Origin: a virus | Lineage: Duplodnaviria; Heunggongvirae; Uroviricota; Caudoviricetes | Reading direction: 5' to 3' (one strand) | DNA: 64,000 nucleotides | IMG/VR virus record: IMGVR_UViG_3300029906_000160 | In this document: positions 161 to 17,345 of the stretch, piece by piece | How the letters are laid out: each line of letters begins with the position of its first letter | Position numbering within the stretch: the first letter of the stretch is position 1 | Program-made: the position numbers and the translations under genes | Notes under the pieces: generated by a model | Database searches by the model: none | Told to the model about the DNA's origin: nothing | Seen by the model: only the letters and a program-made list of their open reading frames with translations

Positions 161-349
161 TTACTTTTTAAAATTAAAATAAAAAATAATAAGTATTATT
201 GATAAAATAAGATCAATTATCATTATAAAAATAAGAGGACTAAGTATCCAAAACCAAGTCCAGCAAATTACTCCAGTGATTTGGAGAACTATAAAAAGGA
301 TGGTCAATAAAATTGCTAAATTCCATCCTGTACAACCTATTCTTGCCAT
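161..349 (-). CDS. small hydrophobic membrane protein (2 predicted TM segments)
   Basis: ORF track; strongly hydrophobic 62 aa. Confidence 0.4.
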   Translation of the reverse strand: MARIGCTGWNLAILLTILFIVLQITGVICWTWFWILSPLIFIMIIDLILSIILIIFYFNFKK

Positions 350-1070
350 GTAAAATAATATGGATTATAAGTCGGAATATATTGTTCGTTGAGATAACTT
401 ACTTGGCGTACTAAAGTACCATTTTCAGATTTTTCCCAATCATGATTAGCAGAATGTAGGTGCCCGCATAAACAATATTTTACTTTCTTATTTTCTATTG
501 CTTCTCTTAAAGGTTGATTTCCTATACTATATGGCTTTTTTCCTAATTCATACCAACCAAAACATTTATCGCACAATCCGTAAGGAGCATCGTGACTTAA
601 TACAATATCACAATTTTCTGGAATTTCAGAATATTTTTCTTTAAGTGCATCATCACTTAACATATTCCACCAATTTCCAAATATTGTACAATAAGGAGTA
701 CCAAAAATCTTTAATTCTTTTATACCTTCGTCATCATCAAGATATTCAAAAGTATATTCTTGATTATGAAGATATACAGCCCTTCCTTTACATGGAGCTA
801 TTATGTTAGAATAAACACTAGGTGATTCTTCTCCCTCTTGTGCGAGATAGACGCTATGATTTCCACTTATAAATATAACTTTACTCCATACATCTTTAAA
901 TGGAAGATTAAGAACCCATGGTACAAACTCGTTTTGATACCATTTCTTTTGATAATGATGATTGTGATTTTTAGCTGGTTCAAGATCTCCAGCAAGCAAC
1001 ATTAAATCAAATGGTTTAGTTATCTCCGGTAAATGACCATGAAAATCAGAACTAGCTACTATGTCTAACA

Positions 1071-1071
<1 letters not shown>
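337..1071 (-). CDS. calcineurin-like metallophosphoesterase
   Basis: motifs SDFHGH, AGDLEP, SGNHS, SHDAPYG, CGHLH; no in-frame TGA; Trp written as TGG. Confidence 0.8.
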
Positions 1072-2696
<1,625 letters not shown>

Positions 2697-3155
2697 TTAT
2701 CCTAAATATAAATAATCTACATTTAAAGAGATCTTTTCATAGTTTCTTTTAGAGATATAATCATTTACACTATCTTCACTAGTAGAAACAAAAGCATAAT
2801 CTATATGTCCATATTCTTCAATAACAGAAGCAAGTGTCTCTCCAGTTTCAATTATATCATCAACAAAAATCACAATTCCTTCTGGTTCCTGTCTAGCGTA
2901 ATCATGATGAGTTACATGTTTACGTGATAGAATGATCTTAACATCTGTATAACCTGCATTATACAGTCCATTGATAACATAGCCACAACAAATAGCACCA
3001 GAAGTTCCGCGAGCAATTAATGTAATTGTATCTTTTTTATTAGTATTAAATAAAATTTCTAAAATTACTTTTTCTAGATAATTTGCTGCCATAATAAAGT
3101 TATTTCCAAAAATTGGATAAACAACTTCACCACATTTTAGTTTCTTAACTAACAT
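2697..3155 (-). CDS. phosphoribosyltransferase-domain protein (type I PRTase)
   Basis: PRPP-binding motif VIFVDDIIETGETL. Confidence 0.6.
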   Translation of the reverse strand: MLVKKLKCGEVVYPIFGNNFIMAANYLEKVILEILFNTNKKDTITLIARGTSGAICCGYVINGLYNAGYTDVKIILSRKHVTHHDYARQEPEGIVIFVDDIIETGETLASVIEEYGHIDYAFVSTSEDSVNDYISKRNYEKISLNVDYLYLG

Positions 3156-3158
3156 AAT

Positions 3159-3575
3159 TTAAGATTTGTATTTATTTTCAATTACAATGTATTCTTTTTT
3201 CTTAATTAAATTATTCCACAAATCAATAAACTGTTGTTCTTCTTCTGTATTTTCTCCAGTATTATATTGAATTAATTCTCCTTCAGAGGTTTCTTCAGTA
3301 ATTGTATCAGGAGTATTCCCTTCCCAAACTATTTTTTCATCATATTGAGATGCCAAAGCTTGATAAACTGGAGATTCCTGTAAAGTTTCTTTAACAAGAT
3401 CTGCAGACATTCTAATAATTGATTCTTTAGATGAATTTAAGATACTCATAAGAATTGTAGAAATAGTACTAACTAGATCTTGTGCAGAATTAACAGGATG
3501 TTCGTTTATTAAATCATGAAAAATTTCAAGGATTGATTCTCTTTCTTCTGGAGATACTTCTAAGTGTATTTTCAT
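3159..3575 (-). CDS. acidic hypothetical protein
   Basis: ORF track; 138 aa, translationally coupled to neighbours. Confidence 0.5.
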   Translation of the reverse strand: MKIHLEVSPEERESILEIFHDLINEHPVNSAQDLVSTISTILMSILNSSKESIIRMSADLVKETLQESPVYQALASQYDEKIVWEGNTPDTITEETSEGELIQYNTGENTEEEQQFIDLWNNLIKKKEYIVIENKYKS

Positions 3576-4696
3576 TAGAATCCAATTTTCTTTTTAGTTT
3601 CTTGTGATTTATAATTATCAGATATTTCTGAATTATATATTTCGGCAAGAGTCATTTCTTTTATTTCTGGGAGATTAAGTTTATATTTCTTATTAAGAGC
3701 TGCAACCTTTTCTTTACAAAGTGGTCTAAACTCATAATTTGCATAACAACGACCTTTACGAAGAAGAGCTTGATCAATCTTATTTATATCTGCATTAAAT
3801 GTACAGATAAACTTAATATTAAATATATCAGATAATAAACCATCTGACATATTAAGAATATTTGCTATTGCTCCACCAAAAGTATTTTCTGATCGCTCCA
3901 TAAGAATCTGTTCACAGTCTTCCAAAATAAATATAGAATCTTTATGTTCCAACATAAATGCTATAAATTCTGGTTGTGCTAGATGTCCTGCGATCGCATT
4001 AGTAACAACTATGTATTCTTTTGGATGTTGTGATAGCAAATGACGAATCATTGTTGTTTTCCCTGAACCAATCTCCCCACGCATGACAATTAAGCCTGAT
4101 TCCCGTTGATCTAAGAACTTTATAATATCATCGTATACTGGAAGAAAGTCATCATTATAATTTTCTTCTATACGAGCATCAGTTGGCTTAACTTTAGAAG
4201 TAATTGTGTAATAATCTCGTCCATCATACGCGATCAATTTAACTTCTGCTTCTTGAGGTTTCTCTTCTTTAAATGGAAGTTTAGATACAAGATCTTTTAT
4301 CTGTTCGTTAAGCTGTTCTATATCGCATATAAAGAATGCAGAAATACTTCCAGATTTAATTTCCCAAAGAATGTCGTCATTAAAAACACAAATTCCAAGA
4401 TCTTGATAATGACCATCAATATAAATATCTTCATCTAATTCTGGTTCTTCATCATCTCTATGAACTTCTTCTTCAACAGCACTTGTTTTTAATTCTGTTT
4501 TAGTTCTTGTAGACCAAACTTCTTTATGATTTGGAAATATCTCTTTAATTAAATCATCTGTAATTTTATCTACATCTACTTCTCTTCCATCAAAAGCATA
4601 TAAAAAAGTACTTGGAATAGCACCCATCTTTTGCATATAAAAAGCAGACTTAGATAAATTACCATAACTATTTAAACATTTTGTGTAATCTATCAT
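3575..4696 (-). CDS. AAA+ ATPase
   Basis: Walker A GEIGSGKTT, Walker B IFILEDCEQ, sensor/arginine-finger-like RKGRCYANYEF. Confidence 0.75.
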   Translation of the reverse strand: MIDYTKCLNSYGNLSKSAFYMQKMGAIPSTFLYAFDGREVDVDKITDDLIKEIFPNHKEVWSTRTKTELKTSAVEEEVHRDDEEPELDEDIYIDGHYQDLGICVFNDDILWEIKSGSISAFFICDIEQLNEQIKDLVSKLPFKEEKPQEAEVKLIAYDGRDYYTITSKVKPTDARIEENYNDDFLPVYDDIIKFLDQRESGLIVMRGEIGSGKTTMIRHLLSQHPKEYIVVTNAIAGHLAQPEFIAFMLEHKDSIFILEDCEQILMERSENTFGGAIANILNMSDGLLSDIFNIKFICTFNADINKIDQALLRKGRCYANYEFRPLCKEKVAALNKKYKLNLPEIKEMTLAEIYNSEISDNYKSQETKKKIGF

Positions 4697-4962
4697 ATTA
4701 ATTTTTATTAAAGAAAAAACTCTTTTATATTCACTATTAACTGAAATAAATTTATTATTGGAATAATAGACATTAACATTAATACGTTTGCTGTTAGTAA
4801 GTCTATCCTTCCATTAGAATATTCTCTATTTGTAAACCATGCGTTTAATAAACATGGAATAATATAAAACATACAAAAATAAAACATAATAAGATAATTT
4901 AAGCCTTATTTCAGGCTAGAGTTAACTTAACCTTAAAATAAGGCTGAAAATGTATCATAATT

Positions 4963-5052
4963 GTCTTAGAGCAGGAGCTGAACGGGTCGAACGCTCACCT
5001 GAGGCTTTGGAGGCCCCCTTTACGGTTTTGAAGACCGCTGTGCTACCATTAC
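4963..5052 (-). tRNA. tRNA with anticodon UCA (reads UGA); tRNA-Trp-like backbone; atypical 25-nt variable region
   Basis: acceptor GGAGCUU/AGCUCC; D-arm UAGUGUAAUGGUAGCAC; anticodon arm GCGGU-CUUCAAA-ACCGU (E. coli tRNA-Trp has ..GGUCUCCAAAACCG..); T-arm GAGCG-UUCGACC-CGUUC; 90 nt. Confidence 0.6.
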
Positions 5053-5168
5053 ACTAAGCTCCTATTAAAATAAAGAACTCTCTATTTGCTTAGATTTATA
5101 ATCTCTCTAAATATTTGTTCTTTTAATTTCTAATACAAATATATAAAGAAATTTTTAATCTTACAAAT

Positions 5169-5630
5169 TTATTTTTGAGAGTTCGAATCGGAAAAGAATG
5201 CAATTACTTTATCAGTAATTTCGTCGGTTAAACCAGTTTCATAATCAATTCCAAAGAATGGTTGACCTGGAATCATATCTGTACGATCATCGATTATACA
5301 CCATCGATCATCTTTAGTTAAATGTTGATCTACCCAATTCTGAATTTCTTTACCACGACTTAATTCTTTTGGAGAAAAGATACTCATTTCAGTACGACCA
5401 ATAATTACACCAGTTAAGCCAGCAGTATATAGTCTTTTACAAGAACAGTTAAAATCGTATCTCCAATCTGAAGACATAACAAGATATGCCCCTGTTTCAG
5501 AGCATATCCTGTTTAGCCTTTCAATACATTTTGGATCTAGATCCTCGTCTATTGCGTTTGGATGATATGATTGATACCAAGTCTCAGAATTAAGAGTTCC
5601 ATCAATATCGAACATAATAAAATTAGCCAT
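5169..5630 (-). CDS. HAD-superfamily hydrolase/phosphatase
   Basis: N-terminal FDIDGTL (DxDGT motif). Confidence 0.55.
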   Translation of the reverse strand: MANFIMFDIDGTLNSETWYQSYHPNAIDEDLDPKCIERLNRICSETGAYLVMSSDWRYDFNCSCKRLYTAGLTGVIIGRTEMSIFSPKELSRGKEIQNWVDQHLTKDDRWCIIDDRTDMIPGQPFFGIDYETGLTDEITDKVIAFFSDSNSQK

Positions 5631-6430
5631 TATATAAACTTATAAAATTCAGCAGATTCAAGTTTGGCATAATCTCTTAGTTCTTGCTCAAAATAAGGAA
5701 GTATATACTGTGCTACTTTTTGTCGCATCCAAGCTGGAACTCCTCCGTAATAAGCTTCGGCGATAGATCCTGCAATAGCAGCTTGAGTATCTGCATCTCC
5801 TCCAAGACTAATAGCAAGTTTAATCGTCTCTTCGTATGAACGACCTTCAAGAAAACATAAAATTGCTTCTGGTACTGAACCTTGACATGTGGCATCAAAT
5901 TTATAATCTGATCGTATATCATCAAGTTTTCTCTCAAGATTATATCCAAAATTATTAATAATATACGCCTTTATATAATTCTTTGTCTGTCCAATACGAG
6001 CGAGATAAATAGCAGATGCTGTAGCTTGAGCACCCTTTATTCCTTCTGGATCATTATGTGTACATTCAGCAGTAATCTTAGCATCTTTCATTACATCTCT
6101 AAGACAATGATTCATCCAAGCTACTGGAGAAACCCTCATTGCTGAACCATTACCGAATGAACCATAAGCTCCCATTTTAGGATCTACAAGCCACTTTCTA
6201 AACATTCCACCATATCCTACTTTTGGATATTTAAGGCCATACCAACGATAATAAGTTTCTATAGGGCTCTTTTTACCATCAACATACCATTTCATAGTAG
6301 CGATAGTCATTACTGTATCATCAGTAAATTTAGATCCTGGCTGAAACAAAAATGGATTTTTAGATTTAGTTCTATGATCTCCAAATTCGTAATAAGATCC
6401 GCAAACATCACCTATAATTGCTCCGTACAT
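5630..6430 (-). CDS. ADP-ribosylglycohydrolase (DraG/ARH family)
   Basis: family-typical glycine/acidic-rich signatures; C-terminal GGDADTQAAIAGSIAEAYYG. Confidence 0.8.
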   Translation of the reverse strand: MYGAIIGDVCGSYYEFGDHRTKSKNPFLFQPGSKFTDDTVMTIATMKWYVDGKKSPIETYYRWYGLKYPKVGYGGMFRKWLVDPKMGAYGSFGNGSAMRVSPVAWMNHCLRDVMKDAKITAECTHNDPEGIKGAQATASAIYLARIGQTKNYIKAYIINNFGYNLERKLDDIRSDYKFDATCQGSVPEAILCFLEGRSYEETIKLAISLGGDADTQAAIAGSIAEAYYGGVPAWMRQKVAQYILPYFEQELRDYAKLESAEFYKFI

Positions 6431-6437
6431 AATTTAA

Positions 6438-7118
6438 TTATTTATAATAAGCATTAAATGAACTTGCACTTATTTGTTCTATATGTGCGTTTTTTCTAAA
6501 TTCTTCAAGAGTTCTTGAATTACAGTAAGACATTGCTGAACGAAAATAACTAATAAAATTGTCACACCATCCAGCTAAAGTATATTTAATAGGAACAAGA
6601 GTTTCTATTCCTTCTGCTGTTTTTGTTGCTTCTCCACTTATTTCTGTTTGAGCTCTTTTTGTAGACATTCCATAATACTTACGTACTCTTTCGCCATTAT
6701 GATTAAATATAACTTTTCCACAAGCTTCTTCACTCATAGCAAATATCTTACCCAACATTACATAATCAGCACCAATTGCAAGAGCTTTGATTATTTGATC
6801 AAAATTAGAGAATCCTCCATCTGCAACTATTTTTGGAATAGATCTATAAGGACTGTAATAAATATATTTTTCTCCATCACAATTTTTTCGTTCTTTTCCA
6901 TTATACTCAGTTGAAACACTTACTGTATTCTTATGAAAAACTAATTTCTGAAGTAAAGAAACCATTGGATAATGAATACTCGAATTTGCCGAAGTAGTAC
7001 AATTGTGAACAACAAAATCATTAGCGATATATTGATGCTCTTTTTCAACTTCAATATCAAAAACCTCTGTAGATTGATACTTAATTTCTACAGAGGTTAT
7101 TTCTACAAAATTAATCAT
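6438..7118 (-). CDS. C-terminal split-intein half (IntC, 39 aa) fused to the C-extein of an IMPDH/GMP-reductase family enzyme
   Basis: N-term MINFVEITSVEIKYQSTEVFDIEVEKEHQYIANDFVVHN (intein blocks F/G ending HN) followed by CTTSAN (IMPDH catalytic-loop remainder); ADGGF..KALAIGADYVMLG TIM-barrel motifs. Confidence 0.8.
   Translation of the reverse strand: MINFVEITSVEIKYQSTEVFDIEVEKEHQYIANDFVVHNCTTSANSSIHYPMVSLLQKLVFHKNTVSVSTEYNGKERKNCDGEKYIYYSPYRSIPKIVADGGFSNFDQIIKALAIGADYVMLGKIFAMSEEACGKVIFNHNGERVRKYYGMSTKRAQTEISGEATKTAEGIETLVPIKYTLAGWCDNFISYFRSAMSYCNSRTLEEFRKNAHIEQISASSFNAYYK
7002..7118 (-). other. IntC split-intein segment
   Basis: blocks F and G; terminal Asn followed by +1 Cys. Confidence 0.7.
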
Positions 7119-8160
7119 ACATTAATTGTCTTATTTTATTTATTGTTTCTGGATTTTTAATATCATCTTTAGTTAAACGTAAAAATTTATATCCATTATC
7201 TTTAGCAAACTGTTCTTTTAATTGATCCCTTTCTTTTTCATCCTCTTTATGATATTTTCCTGTAGAATCATATTCGATTAAAACAGTTTTATTTATAAAG
7301 TAATCATAAATAACATATCCATCACTTAATTCAAACTTTTTTCCAAGTATAATTAAGTTTCCAATTTCAGGAAAATAAAATTTTAAAACTTGATAAAATT
7401 CAAATTCTTCATTAGAGTGAAGACCATAAGATAAATAAATATCTATTTCATCGCCATACAATCGTTTAAGATTTTTATAAACAGTTTCAGCAGATTTGGT
7501 TATTTTTTCATCATGTTTTTCGTTATAATATTTAACTAAAGAATGAATTGTATATTTTTGTGGATTTGCTTTAATCAAAAGATACATCCATGTATATGAA
7601 TTATTAGATTCTGTTTCGATAAAACCTTTACTCTCTACAACAAAATTATATCGATAAAAATCAGTTAATTCTGTGATTTCTTTTTCTGTACAAATTTCTA
7701 AAGCAATTCATACTTTTTTAAGAGTTCTTTTATCTATATTATATTGTTTTGCTACATCTATTAAAGGAGTTTCTTTATTAGAAAACATTTGAAAAGCTTC
7801 TGTAAAAGTTTTTTCATCATAACGATTCTTATACCATTGTTTTACATCAAAAGTATTCTTTAAAGATGGCTTTATTTTTTCTTTTATTTCTTGATTCGCT
7901 TGCTTAAGCATCCGCCCCATACAAGAATCTGTAGCATATTTATTAAATTCCCAACGCTTTCCTCCCGTACGTAAATGTAACGGATTTCCACAACCACAAG
8001 GGCATATAGGATGAACTCCGTTGTATCAAAATTTAACAATATAATCTTCTAATTCCATTTGATGATCTATTTTAATATGAGATCTCAATTTTGCTTTACA
8101 TGAACTTTCTTTTTCATATGTAAATTCTTTACCACAAATTTCGCATTTCAATGTTACCAT
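7111..8160 (-). CDS. free-standing homing endonuclease: N-terminal Zn-finger plus C-terminal Vsr/PD-(D/E)xK-like domain; 2 in-frame TGA read as Trp
   Basis: continuous 349-codon frame once TGA is sense (joins track ORFs 7111-7587 and 7708-7920 plus 7921-8160); CEICGKEF..CPCGCG; C-term VIYDYFINKTVLIEYDSTGKYH..DQLKEQFAKDNGYKFLRL. Confidence 0.65.
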
Positions 8161-8255
8161 ATTTTTAAAATTTTATAAGTTATACAATGTGCTATAGTTG
8201 TACCTCAACTACTAATACAAAAATAAGTATAAAATTTTAAAAATACAAATAAATG

Positions 8256-9047
8256 TTACACAATTTTATCCTCTACCAATAAATATTCAGAAGTTAAATT
8301 TTTTGCTTCAATATAAAAAGAATACTCAGATAAATTATTTTCTGTTACTTTATCTTTGTCTTTTTTATTTATAACAAGAAATTTATGATCTGGAGTACAT
8401 TTTATTTTATTATTTATCATTATTGTAGAATCGGTTGTCTTTTTAAAAGTAGAAACTACTTTTTGATTTCCAAAAATGGTTTTTACTTGTTCTCCAACAT
8501 CAATATCTTCGATATTCTTTTTCGTTCCATTTGCCATTGTAACTTTTGTTCCAGCAACAAAACAGCAACTTCCACCACCAATTCCACAACGAACATAGTC
8601 TATTCCTGCTCTAGCATATTCAAAATATGTATCTGGATTAGCTATATTACCCGCCATTATCTTAATCTCATCTCCGAACTTTTCTTTAGCTTGTTTACAG
8701 AGATTAAGAAGCCTCTTCATATGACCATTAGCTATATCTACACAAACATAGATAGTTTGAATTGGATGATAAAAATCAATCAATCTTTCAAATTCAGATA
8801 AAGATACAGCTATAAAAGTTTTATTAGATAAATCTAGTCTAGTTTCCCAATTAACTGACCTTGGAATAATAGTATTTATCTTATTATCTTGAAACATCTT
8901 CCAGTTATTTTCATCTATAACTGAGGTCATAGGCGCAGTAAATAATGGAAGCATACCATTATCCAAATAAGGATTACATTCACTTCTATGTTCTATTTCA
9001 GAAATGTCTGCTGGAACAAGACAAATGTCGTTAAATGAAAGTAACAT
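8256..9047 (-). CDS. N-extein of an IMPDH/GMP-reductase family enzyme (161 aa) fused to N-terminal split-intein half (IntN, 102 aa)
   Basis: ..YVRCGIGGGSC|CFVAGTKVTMANG (intein block A starting with Cys); block B CTPDHKF; ends with TAA. Confidence 0.8.
   Translation of the reverse strand: MLLSFNDICLVPADISEIEHRSECNPYLDNGMLPLFTAPMTSVIDENNWKMFQDNKINTIIPRSVNWETRLDLSNKTFIAVSLSEFERLIDFYHPIQTIYVCVDIANGHMKRLLNLCKQAKEKFGDEIKIMAGNIANPDTYFEYARAGIDYVRCGIGGGSCCFVAGTKVTMANGTKKNIEDIDVGEQVKTIFGNQKVVSTFKKTTDSTIMINNKIKCTPDHKFLVINKKDKDKVTENNLSEYSFYIEAKNLTSEYLLVEDKIV
8259..8564 (-). other. IntN split-intein segment
   Basis: blocks A (CFVAG) and B (TPDH) located in the last 102 codons. Confidence 0.7.
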
Positions 9048-9788
9048 TTTAAATAACTTTTCTAATTTATATTAATAAAAAATTTTGGATAATTTTATTA
9101 TGTATCTTCTTCATAATAAAACGACAAATATTGTAAAGCACGATGTATTCAATTGCATATATTATTTGTTCCAACTCTATAAGTGGATCTTGAATAAAAA
9201 TCTTTTGGATACGGAACACCTAGATAACGCACATCTTTTGTTTTTACTCCTATTTGAGAATTAACATATTCTTCCATTTCAGGAGTAAATCCATCTAATT
9301 CTATTTTAATTTTAAATGGACCTAATTCTTTATTTATTTCCACAAGTTAAAGATTTTATATTTTCTATATATACTCTAACAGAGTCATTAATTAAAAAAC
9401 AACCATATCTATCACTCCATTTAATAGAAGTAGTACGACGATCTCCAATTCTATATTTACGACCATCAAAAGTAATTATCTCTGCTATCATACACATATA
9501 AATTTTATTTTTTAACGTAAATAACCCTAACCAATTCTTTAATTGGAATTATAATAAATTCTGATAAATCATGAAATACTAATGTAATTAAAGTATCATT
9601 CTCTTCATATACCAGCCAATTCTTTTCTCCAATATAATAAAGAGTATCTTTAGTTACAATTCTATCTATTCTATAATTAGATTTATCAAAATTTGGTATA
9701 TCGTAAATCATAATAAAAAAATAAGCTCCCAGTTTATTTACTGAGAGCCTTGTGTATTAACTGTTTAATTCTTGTATAAATCTAATCA

Positions 9789-10358
9789 TTATATAACTTG
9801 CATATGAAGTCCCTTCATTATGTCAAGTGTTTTTTGATGCATTTCTGGATCATTAGATGCACAGCAATCACTATGTACTATAATTTCAGAACGAGTAAAC
9901 AAATTCTGAAAATTTAAAGCAACAGATAGAACACACATATTTGTTACAACTCCGCAGATATGGATTTCATATTCAGAATTTGGATCTAAACCAAATGGAC
10001 TTGCTAGTTTAAGACAATCATTTAAATTCCGAAAACCAAAAGCATCAACTTTAGCTATTTCACCAACCCGAACATTATCTACAAACTTTTTTAGTTCAGG
10101 AATTAGATTCCATCCTTCAGTTCCATATAAACAATGTGGAATTGGAAGATGTCGACCCTCTCTAGTTTGTGTGTATGTAGTATCACTATGTGTATCTAAA
10201 GTAAATATAACTGAAAGATTATCATCTACAAATTCATTTACTAGTTTAACAACATTAGGAACTATTGCTTTTGTATACTCATTACCAAGAACATTGTCGT
10301 TTATTAAAAAATCTTGCTGCATATCAACCACAACAAGAAATTTATTCTTTGTACTCAT
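9789..10358 (-). CDS. isochorismatase-family cysteine hydrolase (nicotinamidase PncA-like)
   Basis: VVVDMQQDF and catalytic-Cys motif CGVVTNMCV. Confidence 0.75.
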   Translation of the reverse strand: MSTKNKFLVVVDMQQDFLINDNVLGNEYTKAIVPNVVKLVNEFVDDNLSVIFTLDTHSDTTYTQTREGRHLPIPHCLYGTEGWNLIPELKKFVDNVRVGEIAKVDAFGFRNLNDCLKLASPFGLDPNSEYEIHICGVVTNMCVLSVALNFQNLFTRSEIIVHSDCCASNDPEMHQKTLDIMKGLHMQVI

Positions 10359-10722
10359 ATTTATTTAAATATAATGTTTTATTATTAAATTTAATTATTG
10401 ATCGAGTATATGGACGAGTTATTGGAATAACTGTTTCCACATATTTAGTTTCAGGAGTATCATAACATACAATTAATCTATTTTTAAATACTCCAGATAT
10501 CCATCCATTATAAAAAATATTATCTATTACAATTATTACATCATCATATAAGCTAATATTTTCTAATGTTTTATGATCTTTTATTTGTGGTTCTTCTTTA
10601 ATCCTCTTCCTCGTAAATAAACTCTTTATTTTTTCTACGAGATTCATTCTTTTTATGTTTTTTACTTGGATTTGATTTGTGTTTTTTAATTTTTTGAACT
10701 GTCGGCTGATAATCATCTTCAT
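10342..10722 (-). CDS. hypothetical protein
   Basis: ORF track. Confidence 0.45.
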   Translation of the reverse strand: MKMIISRQFKKLKNTNQIQVKNIKRMNLVEKIKSLFTRKRIKEEPQIKDHKTLENISLYDDVIIVIDNIFYNGWISGVFKNRLIVCYDTPETKYVETVIPITRPYTRSIIKFNNKTLYLNKYEYKE

Positions 10723-10864
10723 TTTCTTCCAGCCAATCCATTCTAAATTTTCCCATTTTGGAAATTAAAGAAAAATTAAATAGTTAAACTTAAGTAATAA
10801 AAATGTTGCTTCAACGTGTTGATTTAAAAGATCAATGTTTTAATAAGATTATAAGCAACATTAG

Positions 10865-10937
10865 TGGAACTTTAGGGATTCGAACCCTAACTCTTAGAAT
10901 GCAAATCTAAAGTGCTAACCATTATCACTAAAGCCCC
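10865..10937 (-). tRNA. tRNA-Ala (UGC)
   Basis: cloverleaf by hand; G3:U70; anticodon loop UUUGCAU; T-arm GGGUUCGAAUCCC. Confidence 0.7.
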
Positions 10938-11035
10938 ATAACATTAAATATTTAAATTAAAAATTAAAGAATTGATACTAAATGCCGCTACATACGAATT
11001 ATCAAATTCCATTTATAGTATTATAAGTATCAAGA

Positions 11036-11109
11036 GAGCAGCATAGGTGAATCGAACACCCATATTCAGATTGGAAGTCTGACATAATAACCGTTATACT
11101 AATGCTGCT
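11036..11109 (-). tRNA. tRNA-Gly (UCC)
   Basis: acceptor AGCAGCA/UGCUGCU; anticodon loop CUUCCAA; T-arm GGUGUUCGAUUCACC. Confidence 0.7.
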
Positions 11110-11185
11110 AATAATAGAAAGGCTTAGGACTTCTTTTGGTAAGTTTTACTCAGGATCCTGGAGATTTTCCCTTTCCTTTCTATTG

Positions 11186-11258
11186 AGCCTTCTGTCGGAA
11201 TCGAACCAACAACCTGAACTTTACAAAAGTCCTGCTCTGCCTATTGAGCTAAGAAGGC
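11186..11258 (-). tRNA. tRNA-Thr (UGU)
   Basis: acceptor GCCUUCU/AGAAGGC; D-arm UAGCUCAAUAGGCAGAGCA; anticodon loop UUUGUAA. Confidence 0.7.
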
Positions 11259-11265
11259 GTATCTA

Positions 11266-11831
11266 TTATTTTGTATATTTCTTTCGTTCTTTTCTTCCAT
11301 TACCTTTATTAGCACCTTTATACGTAGCAGTTAAAGAATGACAATTTGGACATAATAGTATTAAATTTTCTTCAGAATTATTTAAATAATTTCCATCTAT
11401 GTGTTCGACTTCTAATGGAATTTTATTAGTATATGGATTTGTTTCTCCTCACCCACATCTAGCACATTTATTATTATATTTTTTAAACAAATAACACTTT
11501 AAATAAGAACTAACTTGATACTCGCCTTTTAATCCTGTTTCTTTTCCCTCTTTTCAACGTTTTTCTCATTCCTTTTGTTCTCAATTTTGTTGACATTGGT
11601 GAGAACAAAATTTTAAGTGAGCTTTATGTAAATTCTGTCCACAATTAAGGCAAACGCCATAATCTTTTTCTTTTTGAGTTGTTAATAAAATATCTAATTT
11701 TATTGCTCATCTTTTTATAGTTCGTCAATTAACATTATATAGTCTTCCTATTTCTGCATAAGAAAGTTGTTGAACGTTAATTAAATTGTTTAATGTTTCT
11801 TTGTCAATCATTTTAAAAATCTACTGTAATA
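11266..11831 (-). CDS. HNH homing endonuclease with N-terminal HTH; 5 in-frame TGA read as Trp
   Basis: CARCGW..LEVEHIDGN..NLILLCPNCH; HTH LSYAEIGRLYNVNWRTIKRW; unreadable in the standard code. Confidence 0.75.
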
Positions 11832-12152
11832 ACCATTATACTAAAAAGGCAATAAATGTTACTAATACGTAGCCAACGGAGCATTTTATGGTTGCACAAC
11901 CTGGAGCAGAATACATAATTCCACACAGTACATGTTAAATAAGTATTATAAGTAACATAATGGCTTGCGGGAGTTGAAGGTAACGCTCCTCCGTACTCAC
12001 GTTAACAGCGTGAAGTTCTACTTTTGAACTAAACTCCCAACAATCTACTTTATCCTACATACGAAAAGTAGTAAAACGTATCTCCATACGATGAGATTCA
12101 TGAGCGACAGGGCTTCAAGATGCTACGATTCACTCGTCAGTGACTAATTATT

Positions 12153-12227
12153 GAGCGCCAGTGGGACTCGAACCCACGTAGAATGGCTTATGAGACCATG
12201 CTGGGACCATCTCCAGTCTACAGCGCT
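12153..12227 (-). tRNA. tRNA-Met/Ile2 (CAU)
   Basis: acceptor AGCGCUG/UGGCGCU; anticodon loop CUCAUAA; T-arm GUGGGUUCGAGUCCCAC. Confidence 0.6.
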
Positions 12228-12261
12228 ATATTGTATCGCATAAATGTTTATTTATAATATA

Positions 12262-12720
12262 TCAAAGAGTACCTTTACTCTTTATATTATATTTTTTCAT
12301 TAAATCTTTATAAGAAAGCCCAAGATGTTTATCGCTTCGAATTTGTTTTATTAATTCATTAGAATAAATTCTATTTGCTAACGCAGATTTCTTTATTCTT
12401 ACTTTTTCTGGAATATCAAACATATTATCAGAATTAGTTCCAATTTCAATATTTTCCTCTTTATTGTTTAAAGAATTTCCATCTAAATGTCTAATAACCA
12501 TATCTTTTTCATAAATCTTTTCTTTAAACTTTTTATATGCTTGAAATCTATGATGATATACCTTAATATTCTTTCCATTTAACTTAAAAGAAAAATATAA
12601 ATAAGGTTGTTTTCCTCTAGTTCCAACAATGTTGCCTTTTGGACTTGTAACAATTCCATCTTTAGAAATTACATAACCTTTATTTCAAGCTAATTCTTCA
12701 TAATGATTATAATTTACCAT
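12262..12720 (-). CDS. HNH (HNH_3-type) endonuclease; 1 internal TGA read as Trp; annotated stop is itself TGA
   Basis: YHHRF..VIRHLDGNSLNNKEENIEIGTNSDN; track ORF 12262-12501 extends upstream through a TGA to an ATG at 12720. Confidence 0.65.
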
Positions 12721-12741
12721 TTTTGTTATATTTTTATATTG

Positions 12742-12900
12742 TGACTCCTGTGGGACTTGAACCCGACGACCCCATCATTAATTTCAGACAAGTCTGGATA
12801 GTTGGGCACGATCCAACGACCTCCAGTTCCCAAAACTGGCGTTCTACCAACTGAACTACATCCAGAAAGTGATGTGCTCTACCAACTGAGCTAAGGAGTC
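12742..12900 (-). tRNA. tRNA-Lys (UUU)-like gene interrupted in its anticodon loop by about 85 nt that contain a complete tRNA-Pro
   Basis: 5' half GACUCCU-UA-GCUCAGUUGGUAGAGC-A-CAUCA-CUUU; 3' half UAA-UGAUG-..UUCAAGU..-AGGAGUC-A; perfect 7-bp acceptor and 5-bp anticodon stems between the halves. Confidence 0.5.
12793..12865 (-). tRNA. tRNA-Pro (UGG), nested inside the tRNA-Lys-like gene
   Basis: C1:G72 acceptor CUGGAUG/UAUCCAG; D-arm GUUCAGUUGGUAGAAC; anticodon arm CCAGU-UUUGGGA-ACUGG; T-stem GUUGG/CCAAC; 73 nt. Confidence 0.65.
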
Positions 12901-13009
12901 GCTCTTAAGATACTTATTTTAAACCTAACTTATCAATTAATGTAAATATAAACTTGTAAGTATCTTATTTTATGTTAATCTTCAGTATTATAAATTTCTC
13001 TAGTTACTT

Positions 13010-13081
13010 TATTGATGTTGGAATCGAACCAACGAACTCTGCGTGACTCGCAAATGTTAAAACCACTTAACTAATCAATTG
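13010..13081 (-). tRNA. tRNA-like, anticodon region GUC (Asp?) with non-canonical position 33
   Basis: D-arm UAGUUAAGUGGUUUUAAC; T-arm GUUGGUUCGAUUCCAAC; acceptor mismatch at 1:72. Confidence 0.45.
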
Positions 13082-13143
13082 ATTTTATAAGTAACTTAAA
13101 CTAAACCTATAAGTTTGAGTAAATTCAGGGACTTATAGGTACA

Positions 13144-13485
13144 CTAAATTTTTTCAATTATAATTTTAATATTTCCCCAACTTTTTGGAATCACATCTTT
13201 AAATTGAGATTCCCAAAGTAAAGATTGATTTGTAAAATAATAATTACCATAAATAGAAGAAATATAATGTTTTATTTGACTTATTTGCTTTTCAAATTCT
13301 TTATATTTTTTATTCTTCTTACTTATCTGGCATTGAGCTAATTCTAGATTATATATTTCTTCTAAACGAGGTTTGATATCATTTATATAATCAGAATATT
13401 CGATTAAATATTTATATTGAGATACTGTATATTTAAGTTTAGTATCATGAACATAAGTAATTTTATATTTACCTAAAGTTTTCAT
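13144..13485 (-). CDS. hypothetical protein
   Basis: ORF track. Confidence 0.45.
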   Translation of the reverse strand: MKTLGKYKITYVHDTKLKYTVSQYKYLIEYSDYINDIKPRLEEIYNLELAQCQISKKNKKYKEFEKQISQIKHYISSIYGNYYFTNQSLLWESQFKDVIPKSWGNIKIIIEKI

Positions 13486-13501
13486 ATTTAAATAAATTTA
13501 G

Positions 13502-13575
13502 TACTCGGTGGGAGATTCGAACTCACCGTGAAGGGAATGAAAATCCCTCATACTAACCAACTATATGAACCGAGC
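13502..13575 (-). tRNA. tRNA-Glu (UUC)
   Basis: anticodon arm AGGGA-UUUUCAU-UCCCU; T-loop UUCGAAU; acceptor GCUCGGU/ACCGAGU. Confidence 0.55.
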
Positions 13576-13576
13576 A

Positions 13577-13612
13577 AAAAAGAGGAGAGCTAGAACCCTC
13601 CTCGAACTAACA
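13577..13612 (-). terminator. putative rho-independent terminator (minus strand)
   Basis: minus-strand GAGGAG-(10 nt loop)-CUCCUC followed by UUUUUU. Confidence 0.4.
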
Positions 13613-13918
13613 AAGAAATGTTAGCGATTCGAAATGCTACTTATTTCAACGAGCTAATTTAAAAGATTAGAGTTTTAAAATGTTATTATAAGTAGCATAA
13701 TATAATTTTTTTTAAATTTAACCTTTTAATGTAACCTCTTTATTAATTGGATCTCATACAACAAATCAAAGATTTGTTTTTAGTTAACCATCCACTAACA
13801 TAATTAACTGCTCCTGCATGAGTTGAATCTATTGATAATTTTATTCTGTCTTCTATACTGCTCGTCCAGTCACAGTTATGAGAAATGGATTACTAACCGT
13901 AGCTCCATGAAAGTCATA

Positions 13919-14365
13919 TCAAGTACCAGCAGTCATCTGAATAGCACTAGCTGGTCTATCGTCCTGAAGTCTACCTGACATGCTATATGCGAATGAGGTA
14001 TTTATTGGTACTGTTCCTGTCACTCGTGTTATCTTAATCCCACTGATTGCTTTAGTCTCATGCCTATAGTCAAGATCAGGAGATCCATTAACCATATAAT
14101 TAACTGGATTAGTAGTAGATATCTGATATTGTACTTGCATTTGTCCATCATATCCTATTAATCCTTGGAATAGAATATAGCAGTAAATCCTTGCTGCTAT
14201 ATCAGCCTCCTGTACTAACTGATTATTACTATAAGTACCCTTTATAGTAAATTCACTAGCATTTTTAATATCTTGATACGTAGGACATTGAGAGTAAGTA
14301 TTAGGATAAGTTACCTTATATCCGAAATTATCATATAAATACTGATAAGTTGCAATTTTACCCAT
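13919..14365 (-). CDS. hypothetical protein
   Basis: ORF track. Confidence 0.45.
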   Translation of the reverse strand: MGKIATYQYLYDNFGYKVTYPNTYSQCPTYQDIKNASEFTIKGTYSNNQLVQEADIAARIYCYILFQGLIGYDGQMQVQYQISTTNPVNYMVNGSPDLDYRHETKAISGIKITRVTGTVPINTSFAYSMSGRLQDDRPASAIQMTAGT

Positions 14366-14510
14366 GATACACCTCCTCCCTTTCCTTAATTTGAGATTGA
14401 TTAAACTTTGTAAACATAATGATAATTAATTTAATTGTCAAACAATAATTGCTATTACTAGTTTACCGATTTCCTCATTATGTCAAGCAATTACGATAAA
14501 ACTATAATAG

Positions 14511-14585
14511 ATTGAACTCACAGTAGGATTCGAACCTACATCTTCCTATAATAATATAGGTGTTCTGTCATTAAACTACATGAGT
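14511..14585 (-). tRNA. tRNA-like element (T-arm UAGGUUCGAAUCCUA); identity unresolved (6-nt anticodon loop by hand)
   Basis: acceptor ACUCAUG/UGUGAGU with G:U pairs; canonical T-arm. Confidence 0.4.
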
Positions 14586-14690
14586 TAGTAAATTTCTAGT
14601 TACTAAATTATAGCAGAGTATTTAGTTATAGGATAATTCAGGAATAGTAGTATATAAGTTACTTACTTCTTGATTAGTTCTATTATCTAA

Positions 14691-15350
14691 TTATTTAATT
14701 AATACTTCATCGATTAAACCATAAGATTTTGCTTCTTCTGCATTAAACCAACAATCTCTATCTGCATTCTCTACAATTTGAGAATATATAATTCCTGTGT
14801 TCTTAGAAAGTATTTCATATAGAGTTTGTTTGTATTGTTTAATTTCTTCGTAAGCAATTTTTATATCTGATTCTTGAGTTCCTGGAGCAATTCCACCCAT
14901 AGGTTGATGAATCATTATCTTACTATGTGGTAATGCGAATCGTTTACCTTTAGTTCCACTAGATAATAAAACTGCTCCCATAGATGCTGCTAATCCAATT
15001 GCATAAGTTTCTACATTTGGAGATATATACTGCATCATATCATAAATAGCAAGTCCATCAACTATCGAACCTCCAGGACTATTTATAAATAATTTAATCT
15101 CAGTTTTATCATCCATTGTATTTAAATACAACAACTGAGAAGTAATAATATTAGCAACATCTGCGTCAATGTCTGTTCCAAGAAAGATAATTCTATCAGC
15201 CATCAATCTTGAAAATATATCCATAGTTGCTACATTATTTCGTCTTTCTTCTACAATAGTTGGACTTATAATATCATTAGTAAACTTTTGATAATCCCAC
15301 ATTTTATGAGATCCTACTCGCGAACTCAGAAACTTTTCGTAATCTTTCAT
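14691..15350 (-). CDS. clpP: ATP-dependent Clp protease proteolytic subunit ClpP
   Basis: catalytic-Ser region GLAASMGAVLL, His region MIHQPMGG; 219 aa; no TGA. Confidence 0.9.
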   Translation of the reverse strand: MKDYEKFLSSRVGSHKMWDYQKFTNDIISPTIVEERRNNVATMDIFSRLMADRIIFLGTDIDADVANIITSQLLYLNTMDDKTEIKLFINSPGGSIVDGLAIYDMMQYISPNVETYAIGLAASMGAVLLSSGTKGKRFALPHSKIMIHQPMGGIAPGTQESDIKIAYEEIKQYKQTLYEILSKNTGIIYSQIVENADRDCWFNAEEAKSYGLIDEVLIK

Positions 15351-15693
15351 TATATAAATATATTATTTTATCTTTTTTAACATCATAATATTCTGCATCA
15401 ACAGGATTGTAATGTCCCCAACATATAGTTACATCTGGAAACAAAGAATTAAATTCATTAAGTTCTTTACCTATAAATTCTTTAAATCCTGTATTATTTG
15501 CATGAATTTCATCAACATGAATTACAAACAAATTAATATCTAACTTATCGTAATAACATCTAAGTTTTATATCACGATATTTATTTGTAATTCTATTACA
15601 CAAATTCTTTATAGAAAATTCTAAAATTCTTCTAGCTTGAATTTCAGCCCAATCACGTATTTTATTTATTATTTTAAATATAAATTTTAGCAT
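15304..15693 (-). CDS. hypothetical protein
   Basis: ORF track; promoter-like motif 35 nt upstream. Confidence 0.45.
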   Translation of the reverse strand: MLKFIFKIINKIRDWAEIQARRILEFSIKNLCNRITNKYRDIKLRCYYDKLDINLFVIHVDEIHANNTGFKEFIGKELNEFNSLFPDVTICWGHYNPVDAEYYDVKKDKIIYLYNERLRKVSEFASRIS

Positions 15694-15744
15694 ATTTATA
15701 ATGATACTATTTGACTGAAGACTTATTAAATATTGTAAGTATCA

Positions 15745-16954
15745 GTCGTATATTTTATTTTATAAGCTTAATGTTATAATATTCACAGAGAGAATTTAAA
15801 ACATTTCTTTTAATGTTAAATATTTCAAATAGTTTCTGTTTTGTCTTATATTTACTTCAAGCTTCTAATAAGTCTTCTTTAGAAACTATAGGATTTCCAT
15901 TTTCATCTAATATAGACCTCAATTTTAATCATTTAGCGTTACATTCGCGAGAACAACAAACACTTTTTCTATCTTGAGGTTTATATTCTTTCCCACAAAC
16001 GATACAAATTCGTTTTGGAACAGGTTGTTTATTATTTAAACCTAACTCTGTTTTAGTAGATGGAAGATTATATTGTCTACATCATCTTCTAACAGTATTA
16101 TCTGTAACTCCAAATTGTTTAGCGATATTACGAAAACTTCTAGTTTGAATTGCTTCTTTTAATCATTCTTTTGTCGGATATTCTAAATTTGCGTTTTCAT
16201 TATTCTTTAATCTAGATTTTTGTAAAGTATCTAATCTAGATTTTGTACTACATTCTTTAGAACAAAAATCAGATGTACCAGAAAACTCTTTACCACAATA
16301 CTTACATTTCTTAATTTTGTGTTTTACTATAAGCTGATTTTCTTTCTTTATATTTTTACCACAATAATTATCTGTTATTGCATGACAATTTGGACACAAT
16401 AGTTGTAAATTTTCAATTCTATTATCAGTATTAATTCCATTAATATGATGGACTTCTAATGGAATTTGTTGTCCTTCTCATTCTGTTTTATTACATTTTT
16501 CACATTTTCATTCTTTTAATCCAAATTCCACTAATCTAATTTTTAATTTAGATTTTTGATAATCTGAATTTTCTTTAAATATATCTTCTTTAGTATATTT
16601 CTTTCTAACTTTTTCTTTTGTATTATCTATACAAAAATGAGAAGTATCAATATTATATTTTTCTATAATTTTGTTAATACGAGAATAATTTGTATTTGTC
16701 GCTCTAATTCCTAAATTTTTACAAACATCGTTTATATTCTTACATTTTGGAATTAAATCAACAATAATTTGTTCATATTCTTGTTTAGCTTTTTCTCGTT
16801 CGATTATCTTTTCTCTATCTTTTTGTCATTTAGTACCAAGATAATAAGCTACTAATGATTTTGTAGAATTACATTTTGATGCAATTTGAGTATAACTTAA
16901 TCCTTGATTATGTAATTCTTTAAATAATTTATATTTTTCTTCAGCTTCAGTCAT
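15745..16954 (-). CDS. HNH homing endonuclease with multiple HTH domains (about 402 aa); 7 in-frame TGA read as Trp
   Basis: LEVHHINGINTDNRIENLQLLCPNCH; C-terminal HTH ..NTVRRWCRQYNL with W=TGA; track shows only a 78-aa fragment (16163-16399). Confidence 0.75.
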
Positions 16955-17013
16955 TTTATAAAGAAAAATTAAAAATTAATAAAATCTTTTATATTTTAAT
17001 CTAAACAATATTC

Positions 17014-17088
17014 GTAGATCTGGCTGGGCACGATCCAGCAACCTTCTGAGTCAAAGTCAGATGTTCTAAACCAATTGAACTACAGATC
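17014..17088 (-). tRNA. tRNA-Gln (UUG)
   Basis: acceptor AGAUCUG/CAGAUCU; anticodon arm UCUGA-CUUUGAC-UCAGA; T-arm GCUGG-AUCGUGC-CCAGC. Confidence 0.65.
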
Positions 17089-17313: not shown

Positions 17314-17345
17314 TAGTTTTATAAGTAACGTATATTATCAATTAA

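Follow-up and report, generated by a model that had tools for sequence, protein, structure and literature searches.

An accessory region of a Caudoviricetes phage with a fractured IMPDH-like gene and probable remnants of an NAD+ island

Gene content of the locus

The subject of this analysis is a 64,000-nucleotide stretch of a Caudoviricetes genome (IMG/VR record IMGVR_UViG_3300029906_000160), called the window throughout, and within it the span from 2697 to 10358, in which all substantial open reading frames (ORFs) lie on the minus strand and, going by ORF coordinates, the packed stretches show overlaps of 1 nt and gaps of 0 to 7 nt. A first-pass annotation made from the letters alone had listed five metabolic gene families here (a phosphoribosyltransferase [PRTase], a HAD phosphatase, an ADP-ribosylglycohydrolase, an IMPDH/GMP reductase and a nicotinamidase), flanking groL and an AAA ATPase, and had proposed that they could form one module for NAD or ADP-ribose recycling or for counter-defense. 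All five families are present on that strand, and the gene list is real, since each member corresponds to an ORF with a Pfam match or, in the case of the PRTase, to one recognizable by motif, family and fold. The anatomy differs in that the IMPDH-like enzyme is divided between two ORFs, and of the two flanked genes the AAA ATPase (3575 to 4696) lies inside the span while groL (1071 to 2696) abuts its lower edge. An intein, a homing endonuclease and the genetic code of the phage had been overlooked. The observation as a whole was confirmed in part, and its interpretation was supported in part.

The window DNA is 100% identical to metagenome contigs in ENA and Logan, and a megablast search of the span against 50,697 phage records returned no near match. 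The span probably represents a mosaic accessory region in a phage of about 175 kb, whose host is probably a gut member of the Bacteroidota, since groL is 44 to 45% identical to the groL of 167- to 179-kb Bacteroides phages and relatives of both the ADP-ribosyl hydrolase and the IMPDH-like protein stem from gut Bacteroidota phages. Taken by itself, the window presents known families in a decayed arrangement that is misread by gene calling with the standard code.

A predicted nicotinamidase beside a deleted NAD+ cassette

The gene at 9789 to 10358 (minus strand, 189 amino acids [aa]) encodes a predicted nicotinamidase (PncA-like), an assignment already made in the first pass and here well supported by a match to the Pfam family Isochorismatase (PF00857; E = 6.7e-24, 85 bits against a cutoff of 27) and by the best solved relatives, which are the nicotinamidases of B. 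subtilis (5zn8, E = 1e-11), P. horikoshii (1ilw, E = 5e-10) and S. pneumoniae (3o90). As in bacterial and archaeal PncA, the isochorismatase fold carries a catalytic Asp, an Asp-His-His metal site (D-x-H...H) and a catalytic Cys, which align within the segments ‘VVVDMQQDF’, ‘TLDTHS’, ‘PHCLYGTEGW’ and ‘ICGVVTNMCV’; the Lys of ‘IAKVDAF’, not far away, is a candidate for the catalytic one, out of register in the alignment with 1ILW and 5ZN8. Unlike those enzymes, the protein is phage-encoded and reaches only 20.2 bits on the NCBIfam PncA model NF008623, below its 174-bit cutoff, and in contrast to PncA of the Preiss-Handler pathway it has no PncB, NadD or NadE partner in the window. Directly 3′ of the gene, a terminator-like hairpin (9723 to 9750, minus strand; 11-bp stem and T run, detected by a consensus scan only) parts it from the remaining genes of the span. 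PncA-like genes are rare in phages (10 of the 50,697 records), and a scan of IMG/VR with the single PncA protein recovered nothing.

Searches with the PRTase, PncA and HAD proteins brought up homologues in eight sister phages (L019, L021, L022, L024, L025, L086, L087 and L088; contigs of 164 to 177 kb), with which the window phage forms a clade of nine genomes. The core order of this clade is IMPDH-like gene, ADP-ribosyl hydrolase, HAD phosphatase (where present), AAA ATPase, a 138-aa ORF, PRTase, groL and metallophosphoesterase. In six of the eight sister phages (L021, L024, L025, L086, L087 and L088), genes for a Namat-like protein, NadE and a Prs/Adps-like protein stand between PncA and the IMPDH-like gene, so that most sister phages have the order PncA, Namat-like, NadE, Prs/Adps-like, IMPDH-like, ADP-ribosyl hydrolase, HAD. 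An example of the cassette is found at 10001 to 15428 of L024, upstream of the IMPDH-like gene. The Namat-like proteins (NAPRTase family, 503 to 504 aa) match 9W5X/9W5W, the phage Namat structures (PMC12774641), at E = 3e-100 versus about 1e-46 for ordinary NamPT; NadE (232 to 273 aa) matches TIGR00552 at E = 2e-53, and the Prs/Adps-like protein (270 to 273 aa) matches ribP_PPkin at E = 1e-10. The last of these has 1003 phage homologues, the best of which adjoins NamPT in the crAss-like phage cr85_1.

Adps and Namat are the pair that constitutes NARP1, a pathway that restores NAD+ after the action of defense NADases by using their products, ADP-ribose and nicotinamide. Judged by homology, the sister-phage set is a NARP1-like NAD+ reconstitution set to which a nicotinamidase and an NAD synthase have been added. 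It departs from NARP1 in that the pair is joined by PncA and NadE and is itself split by NadE and small ORFs, and in that the Namat-like protein has Ala in the place of Namat D215 (human NamPT D219). A comparable set occurs in Phass-1 (L085, OQ749652), where an overlapping operon at 7998 to 12436 encodes PncA, a Prs-like protein, a Namat-like protein (9W5X, E = 2.6e-105), a product of 139 aa in which HAD-like motifs are seen, and NadE. Phass-1 is an unrelated gut phage of a TAG-recoded clade, and its operon directly follows a tRNA array.

The window itself has the flanks of this cassette and lacks its interior. Neither Namat, Prs/Adps nor NadE was found by tblastn across the whole 64-kb window, the NAPRTase barrel of type II NaPRT and NamPT (PF04095) was found there neither by Pfam nor by tblastn, and the window holds no adenylyltransferase or NAD synthase; the NARP1 pair is thus absent from the window, and six relatives have it at the corresponding site. 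In a blastn comparison with L088, about 4.5 kb are replaced by about 0.66 kb between flanks that are 78 to 90% identical: homology runs through PncA to window position 9709 and restarts where the IMPDH-like gene begins, at 9047. A remnant at 9342 to 9499 still matches the small ORF between Namat and NadE of L024, and the PncA nearest to that of the window (91% identity) belongs to L086, a phage with the full set. These three observations identify the window phage as a deletion variant with an orphan PncA. The NAD reading of the first pass is right for the locus, where six of eight sister phages carry NARP1-like genes, and only partly right for this phage, which keeps PncA, the ADP-ribosyl hydrolase and the HAD phosphatase but has lost Namat, Adps and NadE from its 64 kb. 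With genomes that have or lack the NARP1-like cassette, PncA, HAD and the intein, the clade amounts to a natural knock-out series.

ADP-ribosyl hydrolase and HAD phosphatase

The gene at 5630 to 6430 (minus strand) encodes an ADP-ribosyl hydrolase of the ARH family (266 aa), with matches to ADP_ribosyl_GH (PF03747, E = 1.5e-35) and phrog_6572 (E = 2e-50). Its predicted metal ligands E15, T36-D37-D38 (‘TDD’) and D212/D214/T215 (‘GGDADT’) align with those of ARH3, which also ranks first among solved relatives (E = 1e-16); DraG is a marginal match (E = 2e-4). By these comparisons the enzyme is intact and nearer to ARH3 than to DraG; the family given in the first pass stands and the label “DraG-like” is imprecise. 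DraG identity is not supported by the score on the DraG equivalog model TIGR02662 (37.9 versus 337 bits) or by the Pfam listings of the neighborhood, which contain no DraT-type or other partner transferase, and the Tri1 model was similarly far from its cutoff (50 versus 490 bits). The window ARH thus shares the ADP_ribosyl_GH fold and the binuclear metal ligands with ARH3, DraG and Tri1, from which it differs in being shorter (266 aa versus about 300 to 360) and in having no cognate transferase nearby. Two huge phages with the best ARH matches, LR756501 and LR756500, were considered as syntenic relatives and set aside, as only the ARH is common to both loci; besides it they carry a distant AAA gene and, about 15 kb off, NadE. 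A conserved ARH-centered module beyond the clade was likewise rejected, because eight IMG/VR contigs with ARH homologues have no other gene of the cluster within 10 kb.

The start codon of the HAD phosphatase gene (5169 to 5630, minus strand, 153 aa) overlaps the ARH stop codon. The protein matches HAD_SAK_2 (E = 2.8e-25) and, weakly, HAD_PNKP, and it displays the DxDxT nucleophile motif (‘FDIDGTLN’) and the acidic motif IV (‘IIDDR’), which bears out the phosphatase call of the first pass. No match was obtained in a sequence search of the PDB, and an IMG/VR scan with the HAD alignment recovered one weak locus. The gene is missing from two sister phages.

Two readings would detach these enzymes from NAD+ rebuilding. 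In the first, ARH, together with HAD, would act by itself in the manner of Tri1 or DraG and undo the ADP-ribosylation that a transferase of a host toxin or defense system places on macromolecules of phage or host. The ARH is intact and belongs to the clade core regardless of NARP1, it has partial NCBIfam matches to Tri1 and DraG, and it stands here near HAD, AAA ATPase, GroEL and metallophosphoesterase genes; phage ARG domains have been argued to prefer macromolecular adducts, and the same authors describe ARG systems of bacteria in which chaperones and phosphatases of the HAD or calcineurin type are partners (Iyer et al. 2022; PMC9503650). We nevertheless regard this reading as decidedly unlikely: the likeness to bacterial ARG systems is one of gene content only, the Tri1 and DraG scores fall far short of their models, and the Pfam listings of the window contain no partner transferase. 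The second reading, that HAD_SAK_2 and ARH belong to an RNA-repair or tRNA-linked set processing 2′/3′-phosphate ends and ADP-ribose-1″-phosphate by-products, is less probable still, and we give it very little credence. The HAD protein does match a Pfam family named for RNA-repair “Swiss Army Knife” proteins, as well as HAD_PNKP weakly, and the span has one tRNA gene with 12 more at 10.8 to 18.3 kb. On the other side, RNA ligase, kinase, Tpt1/KptA and RtcB are all missing from the Pfam listings of the window, and the two sister phages without HAD keep their tRNAs.

An IMPDH-like gene fractured by a split intein

Both halves of the IMPDH-like gene are on the minus strand and match Pfam IMPDH. 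The first pass had listed the family as a single gene and had not seen that it is fractured. The N-terminal half (8256 to 9047, E = 4.1e-14) consists of an N-extein of 161 aa ending in GIGGGSC (8565 to 9047; matched by Pfam IMPDH and aligned without a gap to unsplit orthologues) and a split-intein N-fragment of 102 aa beginning CFVAGTKV, followed by a stop codon (8256 to 8564). The latter matches Hom_end_hint (E = 1.8e-8) and also intein_Nterm TIGR01445 (E = 3.1e-4), where its 21.7 bits are slightly below the 24.5-bit cutoff. The C-terminal half (6438 to 7118, E = 3.8e-26) opens with a split-intein C-fragment of 39 aa ending in FVVHN (7002 to 7118; intein_Cterm TIGR01443, E = 3.2e-7, above cutoff) and continues as a C-extein of 187 aa, which matches Pfam IMPDH, begins with the catalytic Cys (CTTS) and runs to the stop codon (6438 to 7001). 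Conceptual splicing yields a protein of 348 aa with the junction GIGGGSC/CTTSANS, and the spliced extein aligns to unsplit sister-phage orthologues, for instance GIGGGSCCTTAAN of L021, with no gap across the junction. As its +1 nucleophile the intein uses the cysteine that also serves the enzyme in catalysis.

A free-standing Vsr-like homing endonuclease of 349 aa is encoded between the halves (7111 to 8160, minus strand), with its DUF559/Vsr-like nuclease domain at the C terminus (E = 4.5e-5, above the gathering score). In-frame TGA codons at 8026 to 8028 and 7708 to 7710 break this ORF under translation table 11, whereas the ENA gene caller gives a single 349-aa gene on the identical DNA and L019 has a 350-aa orthologue. 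No match was found for it in a sequence search of the PDB. An AU-rich hairpin over the 5′ leader of the endonuclease gene (z-score of −2.0) is weak evidence of structure there. Intein and endonuclease are found only in the window and in L019; the gene is uninterrupted in the other seven genomes of the clade.

Dassa et al. 2009 (PMC2677866) reported fractured IMPDH loci with split inteins and “Vsr-like” endonucleases, and the present locus has the same constitution: two ORFs on one strand, an N-part followed by a C-part whose intein ends in HN before the nucleophile, and between them a free-standing endonuclease whose frame stays open when TGA is read as sense. The window intein is 38% identical to the published IMPDH-1 split intein over its whole length (E = 6e-26), with which it shares host protein family, size and split point as well as the Vsr-like/DUF559 endonuclease between the halves. 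Three differences separate the loci. The window junction is GSC/CTT with Cys at +1, whereas IMPDH-1 has GGG/SIC (PMC7090010 supplement) and Ser at +1 (PMC11168065), which places the window junction two residues downstream, at an insertion point other than that of the IMPDH-1 allele; the window endonuclease has to be read through two TGA codons; and the window phage belongs to a clade with Bacteroides phages as its nearest cultured relatives, while the sources of Dassa et al. were surface-water metagenomes. By sequence comparison the fractured gene adds a new case, its junction displaced, to a known arrangement, and we infer that its halves are joined after translation by trans-splicing. As kin of the fast IMPDH-1 intein with a native Cys at +1, the split intein matters for protein engineering.

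Some further variation was noted around these genes. The window IMPDH-like protein lacks, within 6438 to 7118, an insertion of 33 aa present in all four aligned unsplit orthologues, and an insertion of 14 aa is common to it and L022 only. In L088 (13477 to 16429), groL of the same block is in two pieces (92 and 454 aa, both matching Cpn60) with a 372-aa LAGLIDADG ORF between them, which makes it another interrupted gene.

Nucleotide metabolism and the PRTase block

Compared with solved structures, the spliced 348-aa protein matches 3r2g (E = 1e-30) and GMP reductases (E = 6e-26). Its best family scores are on GMP reductase models, PRK05096 giving 125 bits against a cutoff of 397, so that the equivalog level of GMP reductase is not reached. 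The features that define IMPDH are a CBS subdomain and, in the flap, an Arg-Tyr dyad that activates water. The spliced protein has the barrel of the IMPDH/GMP reductase family with the catalytic Cys loop; the CBS insert is absent, and the flap ‘YYGMSTKRAQTEISGEATKTAEG’ has no Arg-Tyr dyad and is short and GMP-reductase-like (‘YYGMST...TAEG’). In length and flap the gene product thus looks like a GMP reductase, and the gene like one of nucleotide metabolism. Related genes are carried by crAss-like, Lak and other huge phages; that of XacN1 is annotated as GMP reductase, and that of the crAss-like phage cr108_1 is located between thymidylate synthase and a group of ribonucleotide reductase (RNR), dUTPase, DNA polymerase I and metallophosphoesterase genes. 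Scanning IMG/VR with the IMPDH-like alignment gave one weak locus. All nine clade genomes have the gene, with or without NARP1.

The PRTase gene (2697 to 3155, minus strand, 152 aa) encodes a divergent, type I-like member recognizable by motif, family and fold, and the first-pass call stands to that extent; the protein has no Pfam match of its own, Pribosyltran included. The family to which it belongs is tiny (35 matches among 1.84 billion representatives). Pribosyltran is matched by 24 of 33 members and PRTase-CE by 25. Its phosphoribosyl pyrophosphate (PRPP) loop ‘VIFVDDIIETGETL’ has two acidic residues followed by TG.T, with D99, D100, G105 and T107 invariant or nearly so, and the family has motifs of its own (YP.G, RG.SG and RK..E.SH). 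In a Foldseek search with the AF2 model (pLDDT 86.7), XGPRT and other 6-oxopurine PRTases were the best matches (E = 2e-5, probability 1.00), at TM scores of only 0.43 to 0.48. E. coli Gpt (XGPRT), the nearest by structure and sequence, has the same length of 152 aa, the type I fold and the PRPP loop in common with it, and differs in the low identity (14 to 20%) and TM score, in the size and private motifs of the family, and in that relatives of the window protein also match PRTase-CE. On its model, then, the PRTase is of type I, nearest to XGPRT, and not of the type II NaPRT/NamPT fold, which goes against a part for it in NAD salvage. A PADLOC search returned a weak match to a retron PRTase effector model, and an IMG/VR scan with the single PRTase protein recovered nothing.

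The PRTase is enclosed in a block of AAA ATPase, 138-aa ORF, PRTase, groL and metallophosphoesterase, with gaps of 0 to 3 nt or overlaps of 1 nt. The AAA ATPase (3575 to 4696, minus strand, 373 aa; Pfam AAA, E = 3.7e-6; phrog_14322, E = 5.6e-22) is kept in all relatives. An acidic protein of 138 aa (3159 to 3575, minus strand), whose gene overlaps the AAA stop codon by 1 nt and holds its position in relatives, matched no family above threshold in the family-model searches. The GroEL-type chaperonin gene groL (1071 to 2696, minus strand), identified by Cpn60_TCP1 on the identical contigs, abuts the PRTase gene, and its stop codon is overlapped by 1 nt by the gene for a calcineurin-like metallophosphoesterase (337 to 1071, minus strand; Metallophos). 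The latter matches the PADLOC candidate defense family PDC-S10 (E = 1.8e-30); the other PADLOC matches were weak or uninformative. In cr108_1, a metallophosphoesterase homologue (31% identity) is found immediately ahead of thymidylate synthase, at a distance of two genes upstream from the IMPDH-like gene. A hydrophobic ORF of 59 aa at 4708 to 4887 (minus strand) has 47 to 86% identity in relatives.

These results bear on whether the span could be plain auxiliary nucleotide metabolism with no role in defense. A Gpt-like PRTase would then salvage purines, the GMP-reductase-like enzyme would shift G nucleotides towards IMP and AMP for a genome of 30% GC, the HAD protein would be a nucleotidase, and PncA and ARH would serve housekeeping NAD turnover. 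GC is indeed about 0.30 across the window, XGPRT is the top fold match of the PRTase, GMP reductase models score best on the spliced enzyme, and the homologues in cr108_1 (beside thymidylate synthase, RNR and dUTPase) and XacN1 fit the same picture. As an account of the whole span we find it improbable, in view of the weak fold match of the PRTase (TM scores and identity as given above), the rarity of PncA-like genes and their company of NARP1-like genes in both contexts that can be read (the clade and Phass-1), and the lack of any place for an ARH in purine salvage.

One pathway or a mosaic

The scheme that follows from the first-pass annotation makes one pathway of the five enzymes: ARH would free ADP-ribose and HAD would trim it, PncA and the PRTase would take nicotinamide to nicotinate and on to the mononucleotide, and the IMPDH-like enzyme would act in the same pathway, whether for NAD and ADP-ribose recycling or against defense. 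The genes are contiguous on one strand with neighbors kept across the clade, the NARP1-like cassette of relatives sits amid the five, and in Phass-1 the operon with the NARP1 genes also includes PncA, NadE and a small HAD-like ORF. In addition, the small PRTase family adjoins NARP1 genes in crAss-like phages: in the Kolpuevirus ‘frurule’ (L029, 5961 to 10029) a member stands one gene upstream of Namat-like and Adps-like genes, and among 54 IMG/VR loci with this PRTase (L030 to L083) Adps occurs in 19 and Namat in 14, on the same strand and immediately downstream, counts that are not independent events because the genomes are related to one another. In crAss-like phages the PRTase gene precedes a conserved 269-aa ORF, after which a subset has Namat-like and Adps-like genes. 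Much speaks against a single pathway nonetheless, and we consider it unlikely. The PRTase model has a type I fold nearest to XGPRT and not the type II fold of NaPRT/NamPT, and the gene, at a distance of about 6.6 kb from PncA, is packed with the AAA ATPase and groL; the terminator-like hairpin follows PncA; IMPDH-like homologues elsewhere keep company with deoxynucleotide (dNTP) metabolism modules; HAD and PncA are each absent from some sister phages; and the window is devoid of an adenylyltransferase or NAD synthase.

We favor, at somewhat better than even confidence, a mosaic of three parts over one five-enzyme pathway: a decayed NAD+ counter-defense island, a fractured purine enzyme and a chaperone-type block. 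The first part would derive from the NARP1-type pathway of the sister phages, with Namat, Adps and NadE deleted in this phage. Among what is left, PncA would convert nicotinamide to nicotinate, with onward use only by Preiss-Handler enzymes of the host; the ARH-type hydrolase would act on a conjugate or a signal to set ADP-ribose free, and the HAD phosphatase would be translationally coupled to it. The second part would be a purine-nucleotide enzyme of the IMPDH/GMP reductase family, encoded by the fractured gene, and the third the tight block of AAA ATPase, 138-aa ORF, PRTase, GroEL and metallophosphoesterase genes. Neither the PRTase nor the IMPDH-like gene is demonstrably part of the NAD island.

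Several points weigh against the mosaic. The IMPDH-like gene sits between the NARP1-like cassette and the ARH gene in the clade, and by this position it may have a role in the NAD module. ARH is present in all nine genomes, NARP1 or not, and may therefore act apart from NAD+ rebuilding. ARH homologues (41 to 52% identity) in other viral contigs have no NAD genes nearby. The NARP1 loss applies to 64 kb, and about 110 kb of the phage lie beyond, where a NARP1 copy may be encoded; the HAD model is of moderate quality (pLDDT 73), and Foldseek gave no match for it below E = 0.001. That PRTase and NARP1 genes adjoin in crAss-like phages, all related genomes, may be due to a hotspot of insertion and not to a shared function. 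Lastly, every function proposed here, including all substrates and any anti-defense effect, is read from homology and gene neighborhood.

Possible nicotinate routing in relatives

The Namat-like proteins of relatives differ at one position of interest. In human NamPT, Asp219 is the residue that makes the enzyme specific for nicotinamide (Khan et al., as cited in PMC7096376), and mutation of its counterpart in Namat (D215A) makes the enzyme 8-fold less active. Human NamPT and the characterized Namat of SPbetaL1 both have the motif GTDT, and crAss-like Namat-like proteins, which have no PncA or NadE nearby, keep an acidic residue (GSET, in SFCGSETIPAI). In the six clade genomes with the cassette the motif is DKTAT (SFDKTATIPAI), with Ala in place of the acid and Lys two residues earlier, and in Phass-1 it is DRTAT (SFDRTAT), with Ala and Arg; in both, PncA and NadE are nearby. 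The switch from Asp to Ala thus tracks linkage to PncA and NadE. The NARP1 preprint does not mention PncA, NadE or nicotinic acid, and our literature search found no paper combining NARP1 with a nicotinamidase.

A change of substrate from nicotinamide to nicotinate would call for loss of an acid and gain of a base, and NadE would afterwards complete deamido-NAD; the PncA/NadE-linked Namat variants suggest an undescribed nicotinate-routed NARP1 in these relatives. In such a route PncA would deamidate nicotinamide to nicotinate, Adps would produce ADP-ribose (ADPR) pyrophosphate, the Namat variant would join the two into deamido-NAD, and NadE would turn this into NAD+. ARH (ARH3-like) and HAD might feed the pathway by converting ADP-ribose conjugates, cyclic ADPR signals and ADPR-1″-phosphate to ADP-ribose. 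That PncA, ARH, HAD and PRTase of the window are the surviving accessories of this route is an idea we put forward tentatively and on the whole doubt. A “deamidated NARP1” operating within the window itself was rejected, as Namat, Adps and NadE are absent; it is retained solely as a suggestion about the relatives. Bacterial immunity to phages makes much use of NAD+ depletion, against which only three rebuilding routes of phages have been described (NARP1 to NARP3). A nicotinate route, if true, would possibly be a fourth and might escape defenses or inhibitors tuned to nicotinamide.

Recoding of TGA and tRNA genes

All stop codons of genes in the span are TAA or TAG. No gene of the window uses TGA as stop, about half of its genes contain TGA in frame, and the number of ORFs of at least 100 aa in the window rises from 77 to 141 once TGA is read as sense. 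In 35 genes with in-frame TGA, TGG occurs at 4.4 and TGA at 12.4 per 1000 codons, compared with 12.7 per 1000 for TGG in 40 TGA-free genes. Trp fits as the meaning of TGA because TGG is depleted three-fold exactly where TGA occurs, and the phage probably recodes TGA to Trp. The metabolic genes of the cluster are free of TGA, while homing endonuclease genes and a block at 55 to 63 kb are rich in it. Examples of regions with TGA-containing genes are 7111 to 8160, 11266 to 11811, 15755 to 16954, 22310 to 24702, 41459 to 45314 and 55275 to 63560; ORF lists based on table 11 miss or fragment such genes. A codon-by-codon comparison of TGA sites with relatives was abandoned in favor of TGG and TGA frequencies, since antisense ORFs contaminated it and the data were too sparse.

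A tRNA gene with anticodon UCA, which reads UGA, lies within the span (4972 to 5063, minus strand; ARAGORN). It scores 52 bits on the general tRNA model of Rfam and is not tRNA-Sec. It has A1-U72 and G73, which, together with the anticodon arm, resemble bacterial (E. coli) tRNA-Trp. An extra hairpin of about 21 nt occupies its variable region; the tRNA(UCA) of L022 in the same position (7331 to 7405) has a normal length of 75 nt and no such hairpin. Ser or Sec (long-arm tRNA) as the meaning of TGA was considered and is unlikely, given the match to the general Rfam model, the depletion of TGG and the Trp-like features of the tRNA. Stop-codon-recoded phages carrying suppressor tRNAs were reportedly described by Borges et al. 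in 2022; the window phage resembles them in having in-frame TGA in about half of its genes, an encoded tRNA(UCA) and no TGA stops, and differs in the extra variable-region hairpin of this tRNA.

Beyond the span, 12 tRNA genes are found at 10864 to 18266 (minus strand) with HNH-type endonuclease ORFs among them (11266 to 11811, 12226 to 12720 and 15755 to 16954; two to seven in-frame TGA codons). One tRNA call (14514 to 14585) has an odd anticodon loop and scores 49 bits on the Rfam tRNA model. A transfer-messenger RNA (tmRNA) called by ARAGORN at 34432 to 34753 (minus strand) is probably a false positive, as an Rfam search of the entire window at the gathering threshold finds none. ORFs at 22310 to 23200, 23830 to 24702 and 61023 to 61922 have LAGLIDADG-like motifs and four to five in-frame TGA codons each, which suggests, at the level of motifs, that the phage genome harbors many homing endonucleases. 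The region from 38000 to 42000 stands out by its GC of 0.39 to 0.41, compared with about 0.30 in the remainder of the window.

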